Counted from the stretch's first letter, positions 143 to 58,220 are shown. The stretch: DNA of 64,000 bases from an uncultured Candidatus Binatia bacterium (GCA_965215605.1 OZ244070.1:352001-416000); one strand, 5' to 3'. The notes: generated by a model not told the origin, from the letters alone. Numbers and translations are program-made.

Positions 143-1117
143 ATGGAAGAGCTGCCCCCAGCGCTGGACCCCGCGGCATGGAAGCCTGACGACCTCGCCC
201 GGTCCGAAGCATGGCGCCGCACGTTCACCGGACGCGAGTTGGCGGAGTTGCTGGCAGTGGCGAGGGACAACAATGGAACCGAAGAGCCGCCGGCGCCGCC
301 TCCCTTGCCCGTTCTCGCGCCCGAGATCGAAAAGACCGCCAACGAGTTGAAGTTGGGCCTGGGCTTCCGCATCCTGCGGGGCCTGCCGGTCAAGGAACTC
401 GGCAAGGATGGCGTGGGCCCGGCCTTCATGGCGTTGAGCCGCCGACTCGGCACTCCCATGGAACAGCCTGGAGGCGTCAAGCTCGCCCACGTGCGCGCCG
501 AGCCCCAGGGAAAGGGCAAGGGCCGCTACGGCTTCCGGGCCACCGCCGAGCTTCCCTTCCACGCCGACCTCGAGGACGTCATCGGTTTTCTGTGCGTAAG
601 ATCCGCTTCCCAGGGAGGAACCCGCAAGTTCGCCAGCGCCGCCACCGTTTACAACGTCATGAGAGAGGAATGCCCCGACCAGTTGCGAGTCCTCACCCAA
701 CCCTTTCACATGGCACTGCACAGACCGCACCCCGACCACGGCAACAAGTGGACCCGGCTCCCCTTCCTGTGCGTCACGGACGGCCTGTTCAACGCCTGCG
801 CCTACAGGGTCCATATCAAGCGGGCCCAAGGCCTCCCCGGAGTTCCGGATCTGACCCCGGCGCAGAACAATGCGCTGGCGGCCTTCAACGACGTGGCCGA
901 CCGTGTATCGGTATCCGTGGACCTCAAGCCGGGTGACATCGAGTACTTCAACAACCACGTCGTCCTGCACACCCGGACACAGTTCTCCGTGGACGGCAAC
1001 GGACCCGGCCGCCATCTTCTGAGGGTGTGGCTTTCGATGACAAATTTCCGAAGGCTCAACCCGGAGCATCACATCAGCCTGAGGGCCAGGATACAGGGTA
1101 ACGAGCAGAGCGCGTAG
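143..1117 (+). CDS. TauD/TfdA family Fe(II)/2-oxoglutarate-dependent dioxygenase (copy 1)
   Basis: HxD motif (FHADLED), distal His in NNHVVLHTRT, RHLLRVWL; RBS GAGGAG upstream; paralog of 56523-57497. Confidence 0.88.
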   Translation: MEELPPALDPAAWKPDDLARSEAWRRTFTGRELAELLAVARDNNGTEEPPAPPPLPVLAPEIEKTANELKLGLGFRILRGLPVKELGKDGVGPAFMALSRRLGTPMEQPGGVKLAHVRAEPQGKGKGRYGFRATAELPFHADLEDVIGFLCVRSASQGGTRKFASAATVYNVMREECPDQLRVLTQPFHMALHRPHPDHGNKWTRLPFLCVTDGLFNACAYRVHIKRAQGLPGVPDLTPAQNNALAAFNDVADRVSVSVDLKPGDIEYFNNHVVLHTRTQFSVDGNGPGRHLLRVWLSMTNFRRLNPEHHISLRARIQGNEQSA

Positions 1118-1162: not shown

Positions 1163-1918
1163 ATGGATCTCGGCATCAAGGGCAGGCGGGCGCTGATATA
1201 CGGAGGCTCCAAAGGCATCGGACGTGCCGTCGCCGAGGCGCTGGCGGCCGAAGGCGCGGAGTTGGCGGTCTGCGCCCGCAAGGAGTGGGCGGCGCAGAAG
1301 GTCGCGGCCGAGGCGGCGGAGAACAGCGGCGTCAGGGCCAGGGGCTACGGGATCGACGCTTGGGACGAGCAATCGACCGTTGCCCTCATAAGCCGTATTG
1401 TCGAAGATTTCGGCCCCATCGATATCTTGTTCGGGGTCGCCCGGCGGCCGGCGTTGGAGGACAGGAACGCACTCCCTCCGAGTGGCTGGCAAGCCCAACT
1501 CGACAGGGGATTCCTTCGCTTCAAGGCCGCCACGGAAGCGCTTCTCCCTGGCATGCAGGAGCGGCATTGGGGCCGCATCCTCTGGATGATCCCGTGGCGG
1601 GCCGCGGGAACCAGCGTCGAAAGACAACTCTACTCCGTCATGACCGCGGCATTGTCTGCCTGGGTCGAGTCCGCCGCCACGGACCTCGCCAAGGACAATG
1701 TCACCATGAACCTGCTGAGGCCGGCACCGGTGTCGCGGACGGCAGGGATTGGCACTGCTTCCACGCACCACGAGTTTCGGCAGGGCGCCGCCCCCGCGCA
1801 GGCGGACACGACTCTTTCCGTCAGCCAAATCGCCTCCGCGACGGTTTTCCTGCTTGGTGACCCGGCAGGTGCTCTTTGCGGCAAAACCATCGAGCTTGGC
1901 ACCCGCGGGGCCGGCTGA
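1163..1918 (+). CDS. Atypical SDR family oxidoreductase (copy 1)
   Basis: MDLGIKGRRALIYGGSKGIG Rossmann motif; no NNAG or YxxxK visible; paralog of 57501-58220. Confidence 0.82.
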   Translation: MDLGIKGRRALIYGGSKGIGRAVAEALAAEGAELAVCARKEWAAQKVAAEAAENSGVRARGYGIDAWDEQSTVALISRIVEDFGPIDILFGVARRPALEDRNALPPSGWQAQLDRGFLRFKAATEALLPGMQERHWGRILWMIPWRAAGTSVERQLYSVMTAALSAWVESAATDLAKDNVTMNLLRPAPVSRTAGIGTASTHHEFRQGAAPAQADTTLSVSQIASATVFLLGDPAGALCGKTIELGTRGAG

Positions 1919-47239: not shown

Positions 47240-47323
47240 TCCGGGTTCTCCGGACCCGAGACACGGCGGCTGCCGGCCTTGTGTGACAAGGCACTCGGCG
47301 GCCGCCGTCCTTGACCCCACTCG

Positions 47324-47839
47324 ATGCTGAATACGCTGAACCGCGCATTCGACAGGACGAACCGCGTGCTGGGATACGTATCCGCCGCGTTCGTCGTGGT
47401 CATGGCGGTGACCGTCTTGTACGACGTGCTCGCCCGCATGCTCTTCGCCGCGCCCACCATCTGGGTTCTCGACATCAACGAATACCTGCTGGTGTACCTC
47501 TGCTTCGTTCCATCCGCCTGGATCCTCATGAACGACCATCACGTGAAGGTGGAGATCGTAACCGCACGGCTCAGACCGGCATCGCAAGGCAGGCTGCGCG
47601 TCGTCACCGACTTCCTGGGGCTTATCTACTGCATCGTCCTCGCCTGGCAGGGCTGGGTGGTGGCTTGGCACGCGTTCGAGAACGGCTACCGGTTCTCCAC
47701 CGCGCTCAACCTGCCGAAGTTCCCGGTGCTGGTGATCATCCCCATCGGGGCCGCGTGGCTGGGTCTCGCCTTTGTAGTCAGAATCCTCACTGGATCGCAC
47801 GCGCACGCCGCGGCGACTCCCGAGAAGGGAGGCCTCTGA
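47324..47839 (+). CDS. dctQ: TRAP transporter small permease
   Basis: 4 TM segments, YDVLAR, HVKVEI; lies between dctP and dctM. Confidence 0.9.
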   Translation: MLNTLNRAFDRTNRVLGYVSAAFVVVMAVTVLYDVLARMLFAAPTIWVLDINEYLLVYLCFVPSAWILMNDHHVKVEIVTARLRPASQGRLRVVTDFLGLIYCIVLAWQGWVVAWHAFENGYRFSTALNLPKFPVLVIIPIGAAWLGLAFVVRILTGSHAHAAATPEKGGL

Positions 47840-49152
47840 TCTTCCTCGAGTGGTGGATCGTTCTGGTCATCATGTTCGGCGCCCTGATCGTGCTCATGGC
47901 GTCGGGCATCCCGATCGCGTTCGCGTTCGGCGTGCTGAACCTCGGGTTCCTTTATGTGCTGGTGGGCCCGGGCGCGGTCCAGGCCATCGCCCTCAGCAGC
48001 TTCACGAGCATCGGCACCTTCGCGTTCATCGCCCTGCCGCTGTTCGTGCTGATGGGCGAGTTGGTGCTCCACTCGGGGCTGGCCGCCCTCGCCATCACCT
48101 CCATCGGCAAGTGGCTGGGCCGGGTGCCCGGCCGCCTCGCCGTTCTGGCCGTGCTCGCGGGCACGGCGTTCGGCGCCGGCAGCGGCTCCAGCATGGCCAG
48201 CTCGGCCACCCTGGGCACGATCCTGGTGCCGGAGATGCGCAAGCAGGGCTACGACACAGGCCTGGCCGTGGGCACCCTCGCCACCTCCGGGGGGCTCGCG
48301 GTGCTGATCCCGCCCAGCGCGCTGATGGTCATCTTCGGCGGCATCAGCCAGCTCTCGGTGGGGGATCTCCTGATCGGCGGGATCCTGCCGGGACTGCTGC
48401 TGGCCACGCTGCTGTTCGGCTACATCGTCATCATCTGCTCTGTCCGGCCGGATCTGGCGCCGGCCGTGGAGCTGGAGAAGGTATCCTGGAGCGAGCGCCT
48501 GAATGCGCTCTTGTACTTCCTGCCGCTGGTGGTGCTGGTGCTGGTGGTGTTGGGCTCGATCTTCATGGGTATCGCCACCCCCAGCGAATCCGCCGCCATG
48601 GGCGTGGCGGGAGCCTTCTGCCTGGCCGTGGCCTACCGGCGCCTGTCGCGGGAGATCCTGCGCAAGGCCCTGCTGGGGACCGTGGAGGTTTCGGGATTCG
48701 CTCTGCTCATCGTCACCAGCGCCACCGCCTTCAGCCAGATCCTGGCCCACTCCGGCGCCGCCATGGGCCTTTCGATGTTCGCCACCGAGCTGCCGGTGTC
48801 GCCGTGGGTCATCATCGCCAGCATGCAGATTGTGATCCTCATCATGGGCGCGTTCATGGAGCCCATCTCCATCATGCTCATCACGGTGCCGATCTTCTTC
48901 CCGGTGATCCGCTCCCTGGGACTCGACCCGCTGTGGTTCGCCATCGTCACCATGGTGAACATCGAGCTGTCCCTCATCACCCCGCCCTTCGGCATGAACC
49001 TCTTCGTCCTCAAGGGCGTCTCGCCCCCCGACGTCACCCTTGGCGCCATCTACCGCGGCGTCATCCCCTTTGTGCTCATCAACATCATCGCGCTCGCGCT
49101 GGTGATGCTGTTTCCGCCCATCGCCATCTGGCTGCCGGGGCTGATGGGGTAG
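47836..49152 (+). CDS. dctM: TRAP transporter large permease
   Basis: ALPLFVLMGE, GSGSSMA, LIPPS, ATPSESAA, ITPPFGMNLF; start uncertain (CTG 47836 overlapping the dctQ stop, or ATG 47872). Confidence 0.9.
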   Translation: MIFLEWWIVLVIMFGALIVLMASGIPIAFAFGVLNLGFLYVLVGPGAVQAIALSSFTSIGTFAFIALPLFVLMGELVLHSGLAALAITSIGKWLGRVPGRLAVLAVLAGTAFGAGSGSSMASSATLGTILVPEMRKQGYDTGLAVGTLATSGGLAVLIPPSALMVIFGGISQLSVGDLLIGGILPGLLLATLLFGYIVIICSVRPDLAPAVELEKVSWSERLNALLYFLPLVVLVLVVLGSIFMGIATPSESAAMGVAGAFCLAVAYRRLSREILRKALLGTVEVSGFALLIVTSATAFSQILAHSGAAMGLSMFATELPVSPWVIIASMQIVILIMGAFMEPISIMLITVPIFFPVIRSLGLDPLWFAIVTMVNIELSLITPPFGMNLFVLKGVSPPDVTLGAIYRGVIPFVLINIIALALVMLFPPIAIWLPGLMG

Positions 49153-49255
49153 CGTCGGCGAAGCGGCCTCGCGCATAAGCGCCGCTCGAGCCAACTGCCG
49201 GAAACCAAACGGTTTGCATCGCCCGATCGCTTGAGGGAAGAGGAGTGCATGCGAC

Positions 49256-50245
49256 TCATACGCTACCAACCTTCGGCAGCACCTCCTCGGCCATCATGGC
49301 CATGGAGTCGAGAATGCTCTTCTGGTCCAGGCCGGCGAAGTTCATGGAAAAGATGACGTAGTTGGCGCCGGTGCCGGCGATCTCCTGGATCTGCTCGATG
49401 CAGCGGGCGGGGCCGCCGACCATGAGCATGCGCTCTTGGTCGAGCTCGTCGTAGCCGCGGGGGCGTACGGACTTGCGCGCTTCGTAGTAACGGCTCATGG
49501 CGGGGCGGGCGCGGCGGCGGGCGGCGGCATCGGACTCGGCCACGTGCGTATGGATGGTCTGGCCCACGTCCAGGGCACCGGGGTCGTGACCTGACCGGGT
49601 CAGCGTCTCCTTGTAGAAGTCCACCTTTCGCTTCACCTCGGCCATGTCCACGCAACTCGCGAAGGGGATGCCCAGGATGGGATATCCCCTCTCCCCCGCC
49701 GCCTGGTAGGAACCCTGGCTCAGGGCGGCGAAGTACACCGGCGGCAAAGGCCGCTGCACCGGCAGCACGTTCAGGGATACGTCGTCGATCTGGTGGAACT
49801 GTCCCCGGTAGGATACCCGGCCGTCCCGCCAGGCCATCTCGACCACCTCCAGGCTCTCCACCAACCGGTCCCGGTTGTCTTCCTTGACGCCGAAGCCCGC
49901 CAATTCCGGCGGGGTACCGCGTCCCACTCCAAAGTCCAGCCGCCCGCCGCTCAGCACGTCGACCATGGCATACTCCTCGGCGGTGAGCACGGGATCGCGG
50001 TACGGCAACAGCGCCACGGCCACGCCCAGCCGGATAGAGTCGGTGCACGCGGCCGCGGCCGACATCAGCACCGTGGGCGACGGGATGACGCCGTGGAAGT
50101 CGAAATGGTGCTCGCCGAACCAGAAGCACTCGTAGCCCAGGGACTCGCCCCAGCGGACCTGCTCCAGCATCCTCTCGTAATAGCCCTTGAGGTCGAGCTT
50201 GAGCTCCGGGTCGTCGTCGCCGATGATGAACAGACCGAATTTCAC
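49256..50245 (-). CDS. LLM class flavin-dependent oxidoreductase
   Basis: WFGEHHF, IRLGVAV, AEEYAMVDVLSGGRLDFGVGRG; GTG start at 50245. Confidence 0.92.
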   Translation of the reverse strand: MKFGLFIIGDDDPELKLDLKGYYERMLEQVRWGESLGYECFWFGEHHFDFHGVIPSPTVLMSAAAACTDSIRLGVAVALLPYRDPVLTAEEYAMVDVLSGGRLDFGVGRGTPPELAGFGVKEDNRDRLVESLEVVEMAWRDGRVSYRGQFHQIDDVSLNVLPVQRPLPPVYFAALSQGSYQAAGERGYPILGIPFASCVDMAEVKRKVDFYKETLTRSGHDPGALDVGQTIHTHVAESDAAARRRARPAMSRYYEARKSVRPRGYDELDQERMLMVGGPARCIEQIQEIAGTGANYVIFSMNFAGLDQKSILDSMAMMAEEVLPKVGSV

Positions 50246-50479
50246 GGATCCCTCTTTCGTTTGGAACGTTGAGCGTCTACCACAAAACCGGATCGCGATG
50301 CACGGCAAGCAGCCGCTTCCAGGCCCCTGACGTCACTTGCCACCGGCTCGACGGGGACGTCTCCCCTCTTTCGTTTCGGGTTTCGAGGGTCTACTATGGA
50401 AATGTATCACAACGCGCCGCGCGCCGTATCCGGCGCGGCCCCCGTGGGCGATTCCGCCCGTGGTGAAGGGAGTTGCACG

Positions 50480-51493
50480 ATGAACGATAACGTGGTCTCG
50501 ACCCCAACCCAGGAACGATGCGTCACCTCCTACGCGGCGCGCACCCAGTACAAGCCGGGAGTAGTCCATCCCGGCCACGTCAAGGTCAAGGACGCCATCG
50601 ACATCCACTGCCACGCCCACGCCGGCCAGCAGGACGCTCTCGACTTGGTGAAGAAGGCGTCCCGGGCCGAAATGAAGGGCATCCTGTTCAAGTCCATCGT
50701 CGGTAACGCGGGGAAGGCGGTCCGAGAGCTCCAGCAGCAGCTCGACGAGTGGGCGGCCCAGGAGGGCGTTGCGTCGGCGGCCCTGTTCGCCGGCTTCGTG
50801 TGCGGCCGGAACGACGATCCGGTGTCGGCCGAGTTGGCCGAGAAGGCCATCGACGGCGGCGTCGTGGCCCTGTGGCTGCCGGTTTTCAATCACGCCAACA
50901 CCATGCACATCGTGGGAAGCCGCCGGGAGCTCATCGAGCACGACATGAACGCCCGGGGCTGGATCGGCCCCCTGTCCTGGGAGAAGGCGCTGGAACACGG
51001 CCGCTACAATCTCGACGACTCGGGTGAGCTGAAGCCGGAGGTGCGCGACATCATCCGCCTGTGCGTGGAACGCGACGCGGCGCTTTTCTTCGGCCATCCC
51101 ACCCACAAGGAGATCTTCAAGATCGCCGAGGAAGGTCACAAGGCCGGCCTCAGGCGGATGGTCATCGACCACCCCTACAGCCCGTTTCTGGACGTCTCGG
51201 TGGAGCAGATGAAGGAGCTGGCCCCGCTGGGGGTGCTGTTCAACTTCACCTTCGACGAGCTATCGCCACTCCTCGGCGTCGACCCCCAGATCATGTACAA
51301 CACCATCCGGGAGGTCGGGGTGGAACACTTCGCCCTTTCCAGCGACGCCGGCGAACCCCTGTTCCCGGACTCCGTAGAAGCCATGCGCCTGATCCGGGGC
51401 TACATGGAAGCCTTCGGCCTGACGCAGGACGAGCTCCACACCGTTTGCACCGTCAACCCCGCCAAGGTGCTCGGCATGGAACTGGATAGCTGA
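50480..51493 (+). CDS. DUF6282-like metal-dependent amidohydrolase-fold protein
   Basis: IDIHCH, LWLP, FGH, IDHP, LSSDAG, NPAKVLG. Confidence 0.72.
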   Translation: MNDNVVSTPTQERCVTSYAARTQYKPGVVHPGHVKVKDAIDIHCHAHAGQQDALDLVKKASRAEMKGILFKSIVGNAGKAVRELQQQLDEWAAQEGVASAALFAGFVCGRNDDPVSAELAEKAIDGGVVALWLPVFNHANTMHIVGSRRELIEHDMNARGWIGPLSWEKALEHGRYNLDDSGELKPEVRDIIRLCVERDAALFFGHPTHKEIFKIAEEGHKAGLRRMVIDHPYSPFLDVSVEQMKELAPLGVLFNFTFDELSPLLGVDPQIMYNTIREVGVEHFALSSDAGEPLFPDSVEAMRLIRGYMEAFGLTQDELHTVCTVNPAKVLGMELDS

Positions 51494-51717: not shown

Positions 51718-52602
51718 ATGAGCATATCGCGTTCTTCCACGCCGCCCCTGATCGGCATCGGTTTCCGCGTTCCCATCGCCAAGTGGACGCTGGCCAACCT
51801 GCACCGTTTCGACGTCCTCGAGATCACCGTGGACCACTACATAAAGGGAGGCGAGCACGCCCGCAAGGCGATCCGCAACCTCGTGGACCGGATACCGCTG
51901 GTGCTGCATGGCGTGGGCCTTTCCATCGGCACCGACGCGCCACTCGACGAGGCGTACCTGGACGGCGTGGCGGAAGCCGTCGAAGACCTGAAGACGCCTT
52001 CCTACAGCGAGCATCTGGCGTGGACCAAGGTGCCGGGCATCGACATTGCCAACCTGCTGCCCGTGCCCAAGACCCGCGCCGCCGCCGACATGCTCATCCC
52101 CAAGATCCGGCAGGTGCAGGCCCGTTTGCCGGTCCCCTTTTCCATCGAGAACATTTCCTACGTCTTCGACTTCCCGGAAGCGGATATGAGCGAGGCCGAG
52201 TTTTTCAACCTGCTGTTCCGGGAAACCGGCGTGGGCATGCTCCTGGATGTCGAGAACCTGTTCGTCAACTCCCGGAACCATGCCATCGACCCGCGGGCGT
52301 TCCTGGACGCGCTGCCCGAGACGGTGGTGACCCACGTGCACGCGGCCGGGGGGCCGCTGATTCGCCGGCCTTACCTGGATGCGCCGTTCCATGCCGACAA
52401 CCACAGCAGTCCGGTACCGGAACAGGCTTTGGACCTGCTGGCGCACGCCCTCCGCCGGCAACGCCCGCGCACGATAATCCTGGAGCGCGACAACGACGTC
52501 GACCGGGGCGACGAGCTTCTGGACGACGTGACGCGCATTCGGCTGCAAGCGGCCAACGCCGGCGGAGAAGAAAGGCCCGACACCCATGAACAAGCTCCTT
52601 GA
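51718..52602 (+). CDS. DUF692 family multinuclear non-heme iron-dependent oxidative enzyme (MNIO; MbnB/TglH/ChrH family)
   Basis: GIGFR, HGVGLSIG, SEHLAW, LLPVP, IENISY, LLDVENL.VN..N, HVHAAGG, DNHS, LERD; ATG 51718 after GGAGG. Confidence 0.93.
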   Translation: MSISRSSTPPLIGIGFRVPIAKWTLANLHRFDVLEITVDHYIKGGEHARKAIRNLVDRIPLVLHGVGLSIGTDAPLDEAYLDGVAEAVEDLKTPSYSEHLAWTKVPGIDIANLLPVPKTRAAADMLIPKIRQVQARLPVPFSIENISYVFDFPEADMSEAEFFNLLFRETGVGMLLDVENLFVNSRNHAIDPRAFLDALPETVVTHVHAAGGPLIRRPYLDAPFHADNHSSPVPEQALDLLAHALRRQRPRTIILERDNDVDRGDELLDDVTRIRLQAANAGGEERPDTHEQAP

Positions 52603-53326
52603 AAGACAGACCCGCCTGCTTCGCCATCTGACCAGCCAAGCCTTCATCTTCGGCACCGACGGGCTTGGCGTAGCGGCCCGGGACCCCGGTCTCCGGGGCA
52701 TGGACATCCGGCGTCTGCGGCTGGAGGCGGAATTCTCCTACAACAAGCGGATCAAGCGGATTCGCCAGACCTTCGAGCGCACCGCCGCCCTGCTCGGTCA
52801 CGGCTTCTCGGCCATCACACGCGAATTTGCCGCGTTGCATCCACCCGAGACCTACGAGCGCCATCCGGACGCACAACGTTTCTTCGACCATTTCATGGAA
52901 CACTGGGCTCGCAAACCGTCCACGCCGGCCTGGGCCGCGGACGTGGCGACGGTGGAGTTGGCCTTGTCCCGTGCCCGGACGCTCCGGCCTACGACCATGG
53001 AGACCGCGGCCCTGGCGGAATGCCCGAGGCCGCCCTCTCTACGGTATCGCACCCATCCATGCGCCCTGTTGGTGCGTTGCGGGCACGACGTGCGGCCCCT
53101 GTTCGAGCCCGGCCGTTCCGGCGCGCCGGTCACACAGCGGCAGGTCTGCCTCGCCGTCCTGACCTCTCGTGGGCGCCGGCGGCCCACGGTCATGGAGCTT
53201 GCGCCGGAAGCCTTTGCGCTGCTGGAACGTTCCACGGAATGGTCGGCGCCGGAACCGGCGGTTGAGGCCATGACCAGGCACCTTGCCGCGCAGGGCCTGG
53301 TACTGGCGTGCGGCAACCATGGCTGA
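52586..53326 (+). CDS. MNIO partner protein (DUF2063/RRE-like)
   Basis: Overlaps the DUF692 gene; FERTAALLG..F....EFAALHPP and WAADVATVELAL resemble DUF2063 partners. Confidence 0.7.
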   Translation: MNKLLERQTRLLRHLTSQAFIFGTDGLGVAARDPGLRGMDIRRLRLEAEFSYNKRIKRIRQTFERTAALLGHGFSAITREFAALHPPETYERHPDAQRFFDHFMEHWARKPSTPAWAADVATVELALSRARTLRPTTMETAALAECPRPPSLRYRTHPCALLVRCGHDVRPLFEPGRSGAPVTQRQVCLAVLTSRGRRRPTVMELAPEAFALLERSTEWSAPEPAVEAMTRHLAAQGLVLACGNHG

Positions 53327-55181
53327 GGTCAACGGGCTGGCGGGCTGGTCCGTGGGGGGCGCCACGCGCCACGCGGAATCCTCAGCGGACGGAGCCTTCA
53401 CTCTCCGTTCCATCGCCGCGCATCTGCTCGCCAACAAGACCGTCTTCGGGCCGTTGGTGGCGGCGTCCTTCTTCATCAATCTGCTGGGCTACATCTACCC
53501 TTTCGCCTTCCTCATCATCATCGACAAGGTCATCTCCAACCGAGGCGCCGCCACCCTCGACGTCATCATCGTGAGCCTGGTCTTCTTTCTGGTCTTCGAG
53601 GCGGTCCTGCGCGGCGCCCGCCACAAGGCCCTGCGCCACGCGGTGCGGGACATGGACCACTCGCTGCTTTCGAGGCTCATCCGCCATTCCCTGGAGTTGC
53701 CGGTCTCCTTCTACTTTCGCAACACCCCGGTGGAGACCCTCTCCCGCATCGAAGAGTTGCGCTATCTGCGGCGCTTCCTTACCAACGCCGTGGTGTTCGT
53801 GTTCGTGGACATCGTCTTCGTGCTGGTGTTCCTGGCGCTGATGCTGAACTTCAGCTTCGCCCTGTCCATGATCATCCTGGGCTGCCTGCCGCTCTATATC
53901 GCGCCGGCCTTCGTCGTCATGCCCACGTTGCGGCAATGGAGCCAGCGGACCAAGGACAGCCGGCGGGAGAGCAACGAGGCCGTGCTCGACACCTTCAACG
54001 GCATCGAAACGGTCAAGGGGATGCACCGGGAGGAAGCCCAGGAGACGTTCCTGACCCAGCGGGTGGACGACGCCGTATCCTCCGACGACGACGCCCAGGA
54101 CCTGCGCGACTCGATGACCCAGTACAACCAGTTCGTGAACCGCCTGGCCAGCGCAGGCCTGCTCTGGTTCGGCGCCTCCATGGTGCTGGACGGACAACTC
54201 ACCCTGGGACAGCTCGTCGCCGTCAACCTGGTGAACATGCGGTTCTCCCAGCCCATGATGCGTCTTTGCATGTTCACCTATGACTTCTCGCGGCTCCGGG
54301 GCCTCATCCGGGAGGTGGGGACCGTCCTGGATGAGCCCGCGGAGCGGCAGCGCGGCCATCTCGTCACGTTGCCCTCCCTGGAGGGCACAATCCAGTTCGA
54401 CAGCGTCCGTTTCCGCTACCCGGACGCGCGCCGTGATGCCCTGGCCGGTGTGACCTTCGAGATCAAGCCCGGCGAGACCCTGGGAATCGTGGGTCCGTCG
54501 GGCTCGGGGAAGAGCACCGTGGCCCGCCTGATTCAGAGGCTGCATCTGGCCGCGGAGGGGCGTGTTCTGCTGGACGGCGCGGACGCCGCGGTGCTGGACC
54601 CGGCCTGGCTCCGCGGCCACATCGGCGCGGTGGAGCAGGACTATCCGATGTTTCGGCGCAGCATCGCCGAAAACATCGCCCTGGAGCCCGCGGAGCACCA
54701 CATGGCCCGGGTGATGGCCGCGGCCAAAGCGGCCTGCGCCCACGAGTTCATCACCCGCACTCCCAAGGGATACGACACCCGGGTCGGCGCCCGGGGCGCG
54801 ATCTTGTCGGGTGGAGAACGGCAACGCATCGCGCTGGCCCGGGCGCTGTTCCACTCCAAGAGCGTGTTGATCCTGGATGAAGCCACCAGTTCGGTGGACC
54901 AGGAGGACGAAGGCCGGATCCAGGAAAACGTCCGGCGGCTCGCCAGCGGACGGACCACCATCATCATCGCCCATCGGTTGTCCGCCCTCCGTTACGCCGA
55001 CCGCATCGTCTGCATGGACCGGGGAGAGGTGGTGGAGCAGGGCGCGCCCGGGGAACTGGTCCAAGGCGACGGATATTTTTCCCGCATGGTACGCGGCGAG
55101 GCCACGCTGCTCCAGGAGTTGGTGCAGAGGCGGCCGGCGGCCGAAGCCACACAAGCCGCCGTGGAGGCGCGGGATGGATAA
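53319..55181 (+). CDS. HlyB-type type I secretion ABC transporter lacking the N-terminal C39/CLD domain
   Basis: IIDKV..NRG..TL, GIETVK, LTLGQLVA; GPSGSGKST, LSGGERQR, ILDEATS, IAHRLS. Confidence 0.9.
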   Translation: MAEVNGLAGWSVGGATRHAESSADGAFTLRSIAAHLLANKTVFGPLVAASFFINLLGYIYPFAFLIIIDKVISNRGAATLDVIIVSLVFFLVFEAVLRGARHKALRHAVRDMDHSLLSRLIRHSLELPVSFYFRNTPVETLSRIEELRYLRRFLTNAVVFVFVDIVFVLVFLALMLNFSFALSMIILGCLPLYIAPAFVVMPTLRQWSQRTKDSRRESNEAVLDTFNGIETVKGMHREEAQETFLTQRVDDAVSSDDDAQDLRDSMTQYNQFVNRLASAGLLWFGASMVLDGQLTLGQLVAVNLVNMRFSQPMMRLCMFTYDFSRLRGLIREVGTVLDEPAERQRGHLVTLPSLEGTIQFDSVRFRYPDARRDALAGVTFEIKPGETLGIVGPSGSGKSTVARLIQRLHLAAEGRVLLDGADAAVLDPAWLRGHIGAVEQDYPMFRRSIAENIALEPAEHHMARVMAAAKAACAHEFITRTPKGYDTRVGARGAILSGGERQRIALARALFHSKSVLILDEATSSVDQEDEGRIQENVRRLASGRTTIIIAHRLSALRYADRIVCMDRGEVVEQGAPGELVQGDGYFSRMVRGEATLLQELVQRRPAAEATQAAVEARDG

Positions 55182-56496
55182 AGGCCGACCGCGCGCGCAA
55201 GCCGTCCTGCTGGTCTCTCTCTGCGCCTTCCTCGTCGGGGCGCTGGCATGGGCCTCCATCGCCGAGGTGGAGCTGGCGGCCATGGCCTCGGGACGCATCG
55301 TTCCGCACGGCCAGGTGAAGACGGTCCGTTCCTTCGAACACGGGAAGATCAAGCAGATCGCGGTGGAGGAAGGGAGCGTCGTCAGCAAGGGCGACGTGCT
55401 CGTGGAGCTTGACGCCACCCTGGTGGACGCGGAAGTCGCCAAGCACGCGTCGGAGCTCGGCACCAAGTCGGTGGAGGCTGCCCGCCTGGAAGCGCTTCTG
55501 GGCTGGCGACGGAGCGAACCGTTCCGGCCGCCTCCGGATGCGCCTGCGGAAATCGTCTCCATCAACGAAAGGCTCCTGGCGGATCAGATTGCCTCCCACC
55601 GAGCGCGCCTCCGCGAGCTGGACGGCATGATCGCGGAACGCCAAGCCCGGCTGCGGACGCTCGGAGCCGGGCTTGCCAAGTACGAACGGCTGCTGCCCAT
55701 CCTGCGCGAGAGGACGCGGATGCGGGAGACCCTCTACCGGAAGGACCACGGCTCCAGGCTCGAGCTCTTCAAGGAGCAGGAGCGGCTGGTGGAGCTCGAA
55801 GGAGACCTGGCCCTTGGCAGGGAGGAGCTGGCCCAGGCCGAAGCCTCCCTCGCCTCCCTTCGGGCGCAAAGGCAACAAACCCGTTCCGAGTTCGACCGGG
55901 AGCACCGTGCGGCCCTCGCCGCCGTGCGGGAAAGAATGATCGTTTTGCGCCAGGACATCCGCCAGGCGCGGGAGCACCGCGCCCGGCACGTCCTGGTGTC
56001 TCCGGTGGACGGGGTGGTGCAGGATCTGGCCGTGCACACGGAGAACGGCATGGTGGAGCCGGGCGCGCGCCTCATGGTCATCGTACCCCGAAACGCCGGC
56101 ATCCGGGTCGAGGCCTTGATTGCCAACGCCGACATCGGCTTCATCAAACCGGGCCAGCGGGTCGCCTTGAGGGTCACCAGCTTCGACTTCCGCCGGTACG
56201 GCGCGCTCCAGGGAACGGTGAGCCACCTGGGCGAGGACGCCGTGAACGCCGGAACGCAAGCCGGCGGCCATTCGCCCGCGGTAGCGGCCGCGCCACCCGA
56301 CGCCCGCGCGACCGGCCCGATGTTCAAGGCCGTCATCGAGCTGGACCAGGACTACATGGAGGTCGAGGGACGGACGATCCCTCTCGTGCCCGGCATGACC
56401 GCGGAAGCGGCGGTGATCCTGGGCAAGCAGCGCGTCATCGACTACGTCCTGTTGCCGCTTCGCGGCTACCGGCAGGACGCGTTCCGGGAAAAATAA
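55174..56496 (+). CDS. HlyD family type I secretion periplasmic adaptor
   Basis: TM then SGRIVP.G.VK.V, VEEG..V.KGDVL.ELD, SPVDGVVQ, DIGFIKPGQ, RYG, PGMTA. Confidence 0.92.
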   Translation: MDKGRPRAQAVLLVSLCAFLVGALAWASIAEVELAAMASGRIVPHGQVKTVRSFEHGKIKQIAVEEGSVVSKGDVLVELDATLVDAEVAKHASELGTKSVEAARLEALLGWRRSEPFRPPPDAPAEIVSINERLLADQIASHRARLRELDGMIAERQARLRTLGAGLAKYERLLPILRERTRMRETLYRKDHGSRLELFKEQERLVELEGDLALGREELAQAEASLASLRAQRQQTRSEFDREHRAALAAVRERMIVLRQDIRQAREHRARHVLVSPVDGVVQDLAVHTENGMVEPGARLMVIVPRNAGIRVEALIANADIGFIKPGQRVALRVTSFDFRRYGALQGTVSHLGEDAVNAGTQAGGHSPAVAAAPPDARATGPMFKAVIELDQDYMEVEGRTIPLVPGMTAEAAVILGKQRVIDYVLLPLRGYRQDAFREK

Positions 56497-56522
56497 CACT
56501 GTCACGCACGGAGGCAACGCTG

Positions 56523-57497
56523 ATGAACGACAAGGTCGAAGAGTTCCCCAGAGCAACGGACCCGGCGGCATGGACGCCGGAGGACATCGAGCGGTCGGCG
56601 GCCTGGCGCCACGCTTTCACCGGGCGCGAAGCGGCCGAGTTGCGGGCGGTGGCAAGAAACGACGCCACCGGAGAGGGACCGCCCCTCCGGGTCCTCGCTC
56701 CGCAGTTGGAGCAGACGGCACGGGAGCTGGCGTCAGGCGTGGGTTTCCGCGTGCTTCGCGGCTTCCCGGTGAAGGAGCTGGGCCAGGAAGGCACCCCAAA
56801 GGCATTCATGGCCCTGAGCCGGGGGCTCGGTTGCCCCATGGAGCAACCGGGAGGAGTCGAACTCGCCCACGTGCGCGCCGACGCCAAGGGACGCAAGGGC
56901 TTCGGCTTTCGCGCCGCCGGAGAGCTTCCTTTCCACGCGGACCTCGAAGACGTCATCGGGTTCCTGTGCGTCAGGCCCGCTTCCGGAGGCGGCACGCGCA
57001 GGTTCGCCAGCGCCGTCACCGTGTACAACATCATGCGGGACGAGCACCCGGACGAGTTGCGGGTGCTCATGCAACCCTTTCACATGGCGCTGCAACAGCC
57101 CCATCCGGACCACGGGCAGAAGTGGACGCGCCTCCCTTTCCTCGGCGTCCGGGAAGGGGTGTTCACTGCCTGCGCCTACCCCGTCCATATCAAGCGGGCG
57201 CAGGCCCTTGCCGGGGTTCCCGAACTGACCCCCGCGCAGACCCAAGCGTTGGCTGCCTTCAACGACGTGGCCGGCCGGGCGGCGGTTTCCATGGAGTTGA
57301 AGCCCGGCGACGTGGAGTATTTCAACAACCACGTGGTCCTGCATACCCGGTCCGAGTTCTCCGAGGACCGTGGACCCGGTCGCCACCTGCTGCGGGTCTG
57401 GCTGTCCATGAGCCGCTTCCGGCCGCTGCATGCAGAGCATCCCATCAGCCTCCGGGCCAGGACTCCGGTTGCCGAGGGCGGGCCGAAGCCAGGGTAA
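56523..57497 (+). CDS. TauD/TfdA family Fe(II)/2OG dioxygenase (copy 2)
   Basis: FHADLEDVIGFLCVR, NNHVVLHTRS, RHLLRVWL, nearly identical to 143-1117. Confidence 0.88.
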   Translation: MNDKVEEFPRATDPAAWTPEDIERSAAWRHAFTGREAAELRAVARNDATGEGPPLRVLAPQLEQTARELASGVGFRVLRGFPVKELGQEGTPKAFMALSRGLGCPMEQPGGVELAHVRADAKGRKGFGFRAAGELPFHADLEDVIGFLCVRPASGGGTRRFASAVTVYNIMRDEHPDELRVLMQPFHMALQQPHPDHGQKWTRLPFLGVREGVFTACAYPVHIKRAQALAGVPELTPAQTQALAAFNDVAGRAAVSMELKPGDVEYFNNHVVLHTRSEFSEDRGPGRHLLRVWLSMSRFRPLHAEHPISLRARTPVAEGGPKPG

Positions 57498-57500
57498 CTC

Positions 57501-58220
57501 ATGGACCTGGGCATCAAGGGCAGGCGGGCGCTGGTCCTGGGGGGCTCCCGGGGCATCGGCCGCGCGGTGGCCGGCGCCCTCGCCGCCGACGGGGCGGAGG
57601 TGGCGGTCTGCGCCCGGAAGGAATGGGCGGCGAAGAGGGTCGCTTCCGAAGCCGCCCAGGACTGCGGGGTCAGAGCTGCGGGCTACCGCATCGACGCTTG
57701 GGACGAGGAGTCCGCCGTTGCCCTCGTCAACCGCATCGCCAGCGACTTCGGCGCCATCGATCTGCTGTTCGGGGTGGCCCGGCGTCCCTCGCTGGAAGAC
57801 AGGCAGCGGCTGTCGTGGAAGCAGCGGCTCGACGACGGCTTCCTCCGCTTCAAGGCAACCACCGAAACCCTCCTGCCGGGCATGCGGGAGCGGCGATGGG
57901 GCCGCGTGCTGTGGATGGTACCGTGGCCCGCGCCGGGGACCAGCTCGGAAAGGCAGCTTCACGCGGTGACCGCCGCCGCGTTGTCGGCCTGGCTCCAGGT
58001 GATGGCCGCCGAGGCGGCCGAGGACAATGTCGTCCTGAACGTGCTGAAGCCCGCGCCGGTGTCGAGGACCTCGGGGCGCGGTTGCGACGAACCGCGGACG
58101 GGCTCCCGCCATCCGGCCCCGGGCGATTCCCTTTCAGTGTCCCAAGTGGCGGCGACAGCCGCCTTTCTACTCGGCGACCCGGCCGGCGCATGGCGCGGCA
58201 AGGTCATCGAGCTCGGGTGA
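57501..58220 (+). CDS. Atypical SDR family oxidoreductase (copy 2)
   Basis: MDLGIKGRRALVLGGSRGIG; no NNAG or YxxxK; paralog of 1163-1918. Confidence 0.82.
   Translation: MDLGIKGRRALVLGGSRGIGRAVAGALAADGAEVAVCARKEWAAKRVASEAAQDCGVRAAGYRIDAWDEESAVALVNRIASDFGAIDLLFGVARRPSLEDRQRLSWKQRLDDGFLRFKATTETLLPGMRERRWGRVLWMVPWPAPGTSSERQLHAVTAAALSAWLQVMAAEAAEDNVVLNVLKPAPVSRTSGRGCDEPRTGSRHPAPGDSLSVSQVAATAAFLLGDPAGAWRGKVIELG

Follow-up and report, generated by a model that had tools for sequence, protein, structure and literature searches.

A candidate MNIO maturation and type I export cassette of a Candidatus Binatia genus and its putative Cys-Gly-repeat substrate

A stretch of 64,000 nucleotides from the genome of an uncultured Candidatus Binatia bacterium (GCA_965215605.1 OZ244070.1:352001-416000, analysed in full and here called the window) carries at positions 51718-58220 a cassette of six plus-strand genes. 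These code for an enzyme of the MNIO (DUF692) family, its partner protein, an ABC exporter, an HlyD-family adaptor, a TauD-family dioxygenase and a protein of the short-chain dehydrogenase/reductase (SDR) fold. We consider it reasonably probable that the cassette serves to mature bacteriocin-like Cys-Gly-repeat proteins through MNIO modification and to export them by type I secretion, a reading from sequence that draws on gene content, conservation, co-occurrence, adjacency and folds. The likely substrate belongs to what appears to be a new family of such proteins. The cassette itself accounts for a half or a third of a system whose genes are dispersed.

Results

A candidate substrate encoded in trans

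An earlier note on this DNA, made from the sequence alone, had reported that neither a precursor open reading frame (ORF) nor a TolC gene adjoins the cassette, and had proposed that the substrate may be encoded in trans. The first observation holds, in that the 224 nt between the end of the upstream DUF6282 gene and the MNIO gene contain no precursor-like ORF of at least 20 aa, and no OEP/TolC gene was found adjacent to the cassette, the two OEP genes elsewhere in the genome being unlinked to it. At the window G+C content of about 65% spurious ORFs are common; six related loci were found to have no conserved small ORF in the gap upstream of the cassette, and the 7-kb block common to the cassettes holds no further conserved ORF. 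A gap of about 450 bp between the partner and ABC genes of relatives was considered as a precursor and rejected, since it encodes the N-terminal C39-like domain of the ABC protein instead. The proposal of a substrate in trans is supported by a candidate whose phyletic pattern ties it to the cassette and which, in other genomes, lies adjacent to cassette genes.

The candidate came to light through distant relatives. A scan of metagenome contigs with an alignment of the partner recovered MNIO-partner pairs that are 52-59% and 28-41% identical and lack an ABC gene, and in four of these the ORF upstream ends in Cys-Gly repeats following a W ... H-x motif. Distant pairs of this kind (loci L035:8792-12060, L026:10001-15257, L037:1688-4622 and L038:2369-5483) are from soil-type metagenomes and one Xanthobacteraceae metagenome-assembled genome (MAG). 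The short precursors of L035, L037 and L038 terminate in the Cys-Gly repeat itself, and a GT4 glycosyltransferase gene lies 3' of the partner in L035 and L026; these pairs may belong to a sister pathway that does not use type I export and perhaps involves glycosylation.

The genome containing the window has exactly one long ORF with a Cys-Gly repeat, at G000:C1:748277-748948, 344 kb from the MNIO gene. It is preceded by an AGGAGG ribosome-binding site and codes for a strongly acidic protein of 223 aa without a hydrophobic N-terminus, in which a 32-residue conserved leader is followed by (Cys-Gly)12-Cys-Ser-Cys-Ser-Cys. The repeat uses 10 TGC and 5 TGT codons as well as all four Gly codons, and this mixture of synonymous codons indicates that it is kept at the protein level and is not a simple DNA repeat. 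The predicted fold of the protein has a mean predicted local distance difference test (pLDDT) value of 42.8, too poor for a fold search.

Members of the precursor family are very acidic proteins of 122-270 aa that share one build: a leader of about 32 residues is followed by a Cys core, by a linker rich in acidic residues and by a C-terminal domain that varies. The leader consensus is P-W-x-L-D ... D-L-D-L-E-[IV]-H-G, with W17, L28, E29 and G32 shared by all 29 sequences, of which 28 have their first Cys at position 33. The core contains 10-16 closely spaced Cys, arranged as Cys-Gly and then Cys-Ser dyads. Neither a Sec signal nor a hydrophobic N-terminus was found in the precursors, and none of the 29 members matches a Pfam or NCBIfam family.

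A profile of leader and core compared with 1.84 billion proteins returned only 31 representatives, five of them false or dubious and rejected as members (four fibronectin type III repeat proteins and one amino-acid-permease fragment), and a word-based search gave 37 precursor clusters, just two of which carry a record in the NCBI nr database ('hypothetical protein'). The leader profile also matches fibronectin type III strands in the large proteins P0023, P0033, P0035 and P0037, at 5-9 stretches in each; these proteins are not members, and the matches are a hint of beta-strand-forming segments in the leader.

Linkage of precursor and cassette

The genome analysed (4.06 Mb in 8 contigs) is 97% complete. 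Close relatives of its MNIO occur at 27 places, nearly all in Candidatus Binatia MAGs. Genes for the partner are present in 25 of the 27 sister genomes of the genus, in none of 33 genomes of other genera in the order and in none of 400 further genomes sampled across the phylum, so the cassette is specific to one Candidatus Binatia genus. The precursor family is distributed likewise (26/27 sister genomes, with one to four copies in each, and 0/33 genomes of other genera), a type I secretion HlyD is found in 26/27 sister genomes, and genome G413 lacks partner, HlyD and precursor alike.

Comparison of the loci reveals several arrangements. The order MNIO-partner-ABC is constant across the 25 assessable loci, and SDR is present in 22 of them; HlyD and TauD are included in nine of the 25 cassettes (and also in L071) and are absent from the other 16. 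Ten genomes with a cassette lacking HlyD and TauD carry an HlyD gene 157-957 nt downstream of a precursor gene, and each of the four such split loci that were opened reads precursor-(small membrane protein)-HlyD-TauD. Some genomes have additional cassette copies beside phage, integrase or transposase genes, with an S9 peptidase gene at one end; DNA homology among cassette copies extends from the MNIO start to the SDR end. In four of six such mobile-type cassettes (L020, L021, L025, which is from an alphaproteobacterium, and L071) an intact precursor gene lies in the same orientation directly upstream of MNIO or of S9 peptidase and MNIO. The precursor of the L018 mobile cassette is 5'-truncated and L019 has none. 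L071 represents a complete eight-gene operon of precursor, MNIO, partner, ABC, HlyD, TauD, SDR and S9 peptidase, in which about 7 nt separate the precursor stop codon from MNIO; in L020 the distance is about 100 nt.

A search for a conserved ORF in homologous loci, suggested by the earlier note as a check, yields the precursor upstream of MNIO in mobile-type cassettes. That note had also named, as an outcome that would speak against a common pathway, MNIO homologues that do not accompany type I secretion and TauD genes; they are found together, either as one operon (in the nine loci and L071) or split. The occurrence of the same parts in three arrangements is hard to explain unless the parts work together.

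The precursor gene of the genome analysed lies at a conserved chromosomal site (L040:6841-10124, corresponding to G000:C1:746841-750124; the loci in other genomes are L042-L069) downstream of a gene for a major facilitator superfamily (MFS) transporter. MFS transporter matches were found in 18 loci, including this genome's own copy (L041). The gene has a G+C content of 57% within a stretch of 66%, and together with the change of C-terminus and of following gene from genome to genome this fits a replacement hot spot.

Variation at the precursor C-terminus

Across the precursor family the N-terminal part is conserved and C-terminal domains are interchangeable. Six representatives have a C-terminal domain with a match to the zinc peptidases of the Hedgehog-N/LAS family (PDB profile E 4e-5), whose fold occurs in peptidases acting on peptidoglycan. 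Among the Binatia members, many contain two Cys that flank a hydrophobic stretch rich in Gly and Ala.

The gene following the precursor varies with the C-terminal type, as tallied for 26 chromosomal precursors. A Sel1-repeat gene whose product has a hydrophobic N-terminus comes next in all seven cases of the C-terminal type found in the genome analysed, and a second type is followed in all four cases by one small protein with multiple hydrophobic segments. The remaining precursors have another such small protein as their neighbour, downstream in 13 of the 15 and upstream in two; Pfam has no family for either small membrane protein. Polymorphism of the C-terminus with a co-varying next gene is a signature of toxin-immunity modules, and we infer from these sequence patterns that the precursors are bacteriocin-like toxins with cognate immunity.

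The putative modification enzymes

The MNIO gene begins with an ATG preceded by GGGAGG, and its product scores 252.8 bits against PF05114 (cut-off 25). The genome codes for no other MNIO. Among NCBIfam models it reaches 210.6 bits with BufB (cut-off 310), 188 with HvfB (cut-off 360) and 43.8 with MbnB. The closest solved structure is 3bww (E 3.5e-35), and the His, Glu, Asp and Asn positions common to 3bww and TglH are invariant in an alignment of 14/14 relatives; we take the iron-binding residues to be among these. The partner matches the Pfam DUF2063 family only below threshold (E 0.0018, 19 bits, cut-off 27.2). Its AlphaFold model (pLDDT 83, predicted template modelling score 0.81) has just three Foldseek matches at E<=0.001, and since these are solely TglI (8hi7_A and 8hci_A) and NGO1945 (3dee), the protein is by its predicted fold a true MNIO partner. 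A predicted complex of MNIO, partner and precursor residues 1-64 scored 0.62, and controls scored 0.60 with MNIO replaced and 0.02 and 0.01 with the precursor replaced; the prediction returned no answer and is counted as evidence neither way.

TauD matches PF02668 (5.3e-31, 108.9 bits, cut-off 27), and its H-x-D ... H ... R motifs, read by eye and containing the 2-His-1-carboxylate set for iron binding, are kept in 10/10 homologues. The SDR-fold protein matches adh_short at 3.9e-22. In an alignment of 23 homologues, with the YxxxK column placed by eye, the Lys is present in none and the Tyr in four, and the window copy has His and Ala at these positions, although the glycine-rich nucleotide-binding motif is conserved among the 23. 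Judged from these motifs the SDR is catalytically degenerate across its whole family. The earlier note had described the MNIO as having intact metal-ligand motifs, the partner as DUF2063-like, the dioxygenase as TauD-family and the SDR as degenerate, and these descriptions stand, that of the partner through its predicted fold.

A second, intact pair of TauD and SDR genes lies near the start of the window, without MNIO, partner, ABC or HlyD alongside. It shares 81-83% DNA identity with the mobile cassettes L020 and L071, and a gene for an insertion sequence (IS)-type integrase is located just upstream, outside the window (L072:10621-11697). The pair is probably what is left of a second copy of the cassette, of the mobile type.

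The exporter

The ABC protein matches ABC_membrane (1.4e-35) and ABC_tran (6e-30). Its best NCBIfam model is the HlyB-type TIGR01846, with 541.5 bits and so under the cut-off of 725.55, and the best solved match of the homologue in L019 is Escherichia coli HlyB (8.5e-120). The alignment to TIGR01846 starts only at model position 115, which indicates that the N-terminal domain is absent; an alternative TTG start is available at 53283. Most homologues are about 750 aa long with a weak match to Peptidase_C39 (E 2.8e-4), and in those that retain the C39-like domain there is a gap at the His of HlyB in the HlyB alignment. The N-terminal domain of the L019 homologue alone has no match in PDB. A comparison of window positions 53283-53330 with L005:11626-12100 and L019:11632-12180 shows that the domain, of about 140 residues, has been cleanly lost in a clade comprising the window copy, L002, L022, L024 and L029.

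HlyD scores 341 bits with TIGR01843 (cut-off 208.65) and is the sole match over the cut-off in the genome. The description of the pair as an HlyB-like ABC and an HlyD adaptor is therefore borne out in full for HlyD; for the ABC protein the best model is indeed of the HlyB type, at a score under the cut-off and in a form that has no C39-like domain.

Genes of the window

All six cassette genes are supported by profile matches, or by fold for the partner (Table 1). The genes are tightly packed, as the earlier note had reported, with overlaps of 17, 8 and 8 nt at the first three junctions and gaps of 26 and 3 nt at the last two. A scan for promoters and terminators gave no signal above that of shuffled sequences.

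Table 1. Cassette genes and related paralogues in the window
Feature	Position	Strand	Support
MNIO (DUF692) enzyme, 294 aa	51718..52602	+	PF05114 E 4.4e-75
MNIO partner, helical domain and RRE-like domain, 246 aa	52586..53326	+	weak DUF2063 match; AlphaFold model
HlyB-type ABC exporter without N-terminal C39-like domain, 620 aa	53319..55181	+	ABC_membrane, ABC_tran, TIGR01846
HlyD-family type I secretion adaptor, 440 aa	55174..56496	+	TIGR01843
TauD/TfdA-family Fe(II)/2-oxoglutarate dioxygenase, 324 aa	56523..57497	+	PF02668
SDR-fold protein without catalytic Tyr/Lys, 239 aa	57501..58220	+	adh_short
Second TauD paralogue, intact	143..1117	+	71% identical to cassette TauD
Second degenerate-SDR paralogue, intact	1163..1918	+	65% identical to cassette SDR

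Upstream of the cassette (window positions 47311-51493) lies a conserved block that consists of a TRAP (DctM-type) transporter, a luciferase-like monooxygenase (on the minus strand) and DUF6282; most sister genomes have an insertion of other genes, about 4 kb in length, between the monooxygenase and DUF6282 genes. In one sister genome a tandem repeat upstream of MNIO (L007:9338-9817) yields repetitive minus-strand ORFs. The gene 3' of SDR codes for a polysaccharide deacetylase and is on the opposite strand. DUF6282, the deacetylase and a downstream transglycosylase further characterize the surroundings but were rejected as cassette parts, being conserved only at the chromosomal site and not in mobile copies.

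Discussion

A plausible scenario for the pathway is that the partner binds the leader with its RRE-like domain and so offers the core to MNIO, which would oxidise each core Cys with O2. The product is most likely 5-thiooxazole, like that formed by BufB, HvfB and FonB on Cys-Gly dyads, because BufB and HvfB are the best-scoring characterized relatives and passages of PMC13097082 describe FonBC, a 5-thiooxazole-forming MNIO system, as preferring the Cys-Gly dyad. By this analogy a 5-thiooxazole is probable, and the scores below curated cut-offs mean that another reaction is possible. TauD would contribute a hydroxylation, so that two oxidations, by MNIO and TauD, are inferred, and the dead SDR would have a non-catalytic role. 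Export in one step would follow through ABC, HlyD and a TolC-like channel encoded elsewhere, and in the full operons the S9 peptidase may trim the leader. The modified Cys-Gly stretch may be a metal-binding or uptake module. The co-occurrence of MNIO, ABC, HlyD and TauD supports the suggestion of the earlier note that this is a dedicated pathway which oxidises a ribosomal product and exports it by type I secretion.

The system combines known kinds, namely MNIO pathways for peptides made by the ribosome and modified post-translationally and bacteriocins exported by an ABC protein with a membrane fusion protein. The closest MNIOs are those of captophorins, bufferins and oxazolin (BufB, HvfB and FonB, with PME-type 1 partners), and the partner has the fold of NGO1945. 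As in captophorins and bufferins the core is Cys-rich and repetitive with Gly following Cys, and modification at multiple sites is expected. Unlike these, the precursors described here have a leader and no Sec signal, a dipeptide repeat in place of EGKCG, ABC/HlyD in place of Sec export and polymorphic C-termini; DoxX and DUF2282 are absent, genes for TauD, a dead SDR and an S9 peptidase are present in addition, and the BufB and HvfB cut-offs are not reached.

Methanobactin biosynthesis (MbnA and MbnBC) is similar to the proposed pathway in that an MNIO and its partner act on Cys of a leader-bearing, signal-less precursor that is exported to bind metal. Methanobactin operons encode MbnC, a MATE exporter and a TonB receptor, none of which the cassette contains; moreover the MbnB score is just 43.8 bits, and the precursors have 122-270 aa with 10-16 core Cys as opposed to short peptides with two modified Cys. 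Class II microcins and other bacteriocins with ABC-MFP-TolC export, siderophore-microcins among them, share with the precursors a leader, the proposed one-step export by an ABC protein and an HlyD-family protein, a small membrane protein encoded alongside that may confer immunity and, in many members of the precursor family, a Gly/Ala-rich, hydrophobic C-terminal part with two Cys. They differ in that the window ABC protein has no N-terminal domain and the leader does not end in Gly-Gly, and no precedent for an MNIO-modified repeat was found in the microcin literature searched. Microcin B17 likewise has a Gly/Ser/Cys-rich ribosomal core converted to many azole rings, as proposed here; it is made by the McbBCD cyclodehydratase/dehydrogenase rather than an MNIO, has another heterocycle and is a small peptide, as opposed to a protein with a C-terminal domain. 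HlyA-HlyB-HlyD-TolC resembles the exporter through the HlyD match over the TIGR01843 cut-off and through HlyB being nearest to ABC among both NCBIfam models and solved structures. It differs in that RTX repeats are missing (no HemolysinCabind match anywhere in the genome), the substrate C-termini are variable, the ABC protein has no C39-like domain and TolC is unlinked.

A family similar to the precursors in description is 'adjamnio-I' (Antoine et al. 2025, PMC12452194), for which that article gives signal-less proteins of 122-293 aa with 8-21 Cys in the order precursor-MNIO-PME type 2. The comparison is one of descriptions, and with 100 adjamnio-I members in NCBI nr as against two of 37 clusters with an nr record here, the two families are unlikely to be the same. 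The main text of the same article, an MNIO landscape, mentions no HlyD, type I secretion, ABC, TauD or short-chain, and bacteriocins only in general terms; a word search of PMC13097082, on captophorins, returned no transporter or secretion words. In the literature searched on MNIOs with type I secretion, bacteriocins or Cys-Gly repeats no such system is described, nor is there a matching characterized cluster, which agrees with the view in the earlier note that the gene combination is not one recognised from characterized MNIO pathways.

Several observations weigh against a maturation and export module for bacteriocin-like proteins. The evidence for toxin and immunity consists of polymorphism and gene co-variation; the Hedgehog-N/LAS class is the sole C-terminal class with a recognizable enzyme fold and is not seen in the genus, and the C-terminal domain of the precursor in this genome matches no family. 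Precursor and cassette in this genome are linked by co-occurrence only. The MNIO is below the BufB and HvfB cut-offs, and its chemistry may differ. TauD and SDR have no assigned target, SDR is missing from three of the 25 cassettes, and no homologue of the S9 peptidase was found in the genome above 80 bits (tblastn E<=1e-10). For export, the window ABC protein is without a domain kept by most homologues, and the missing RTX repeats and variable precursor C-termini make a classical C-terminal type I signal doubtful.

The alternative that survives best is that the product is a secreted peptide binding copper or another metal (captophorin- or bufferin-like, or chalkophore-like), serving homeostasis or acquisition, with variable C-termini and neighbouring genes that are unrelated to toxicity. 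Passages of PMC13097082 and PMC12452194 assign copper-binding 5-thiooxazole peptides to BufB and HvfB, the nearest characterized MNIOs. The acidity of the product and a core with up to 16 potential thiolate donors would suit such a role, yet the precursor has no Sec signal, and neither DoxX, DUF2282 nor copper genes were found in the cassette or beside the precursor. The C-terminal polymorphism, which includes a LAS peptidase-like domain, the strict co-variation of the next gene and the one to four copies per genome form a pattern unexpected for a housekeeping metallophore, and we regard this alternative as unlikely.

It is also conceivable that the Cys-Gly proteins are simply cargo of ABC and HlyD, and that MNIO and partner modify another target or perform cleavage or beta-carbon excision instead of heterocycle formation. 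The MNIO is under every curated equivalog cut-off, MNIOs are credited in parts of the literature with very different reactions, and in split loci the precursor is with HlyD-TauD and not with MNIO. The position of the precursor in L071 and L020, with its stop codon some 7 and 100 nt from MNIO, argues against this, as do the Cys-Gly-ended ORFs that precede MNIO-partner pairs even where there is no exporter and the lack of any other conserved ORF in the 7-kb common block, and we find the explanation distinctly improbable. Least probable of all is a decaying relic in which the pathway no longer works: the loss of the ABC N-terminal domain, the non-adjacent precursor and S9 peptidase and the reduction of a second cassette to TauD-SDR beside an IS integrase might be so read, but the six reading frames and the precursor are all intact, the domain-less ABC layout recurs with tight junctions and 81-93% protein identity in L002, L022, L024 and L029, and HlyD is the only type I secretion adaptor of the genome.

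If the cassette does mature and export bacteriocin-like Cys-Gly-repeat proteins, a more speculative extension, which on balance we rather doubt, is that of a new class of hybrid weapon: a secreted, polymorphic bacteriocin in which 10-16 consecutive thiooxazole (or related) units, formed by an MNIO in the N-terminal (Cys-Gly)n stretch, would be a built-in, ribosomally encoded metallophore through which the toxin domain hijacks a route of metal uptake in the target cell. The analogy would be with siderophore-microcins, and maturation, export, substrate and immunity genes would lie in one to three loci.

MNIOs, a quickly expanding source of unusual peptide chemistry, have up to now been linked chiefly to copper-buffering peptides exported by Sec and, in a few cases, to small natural products. 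The MNIO of the cassette is joined with a type I exporter, a 2-oxoglutarate dioxygenase and a dead SDR, and the candidate substrate named has a run of as many as 16 contiguous Cys-Gly/Ser dyads; were every dyad modified, it would be the densest MNIO target among those described in the MNIO literature examined. The route to it shows that MNIO clusters without a precursor can be solved through distant relatives followed by a search of the genome for substrates in trans. Should the proposed function be correct, it would take MNIO chemistry beyond metal homeostasis into competition between bacteria, and the product would be one of the rare protein toxins that acquire heterocycles after translation.

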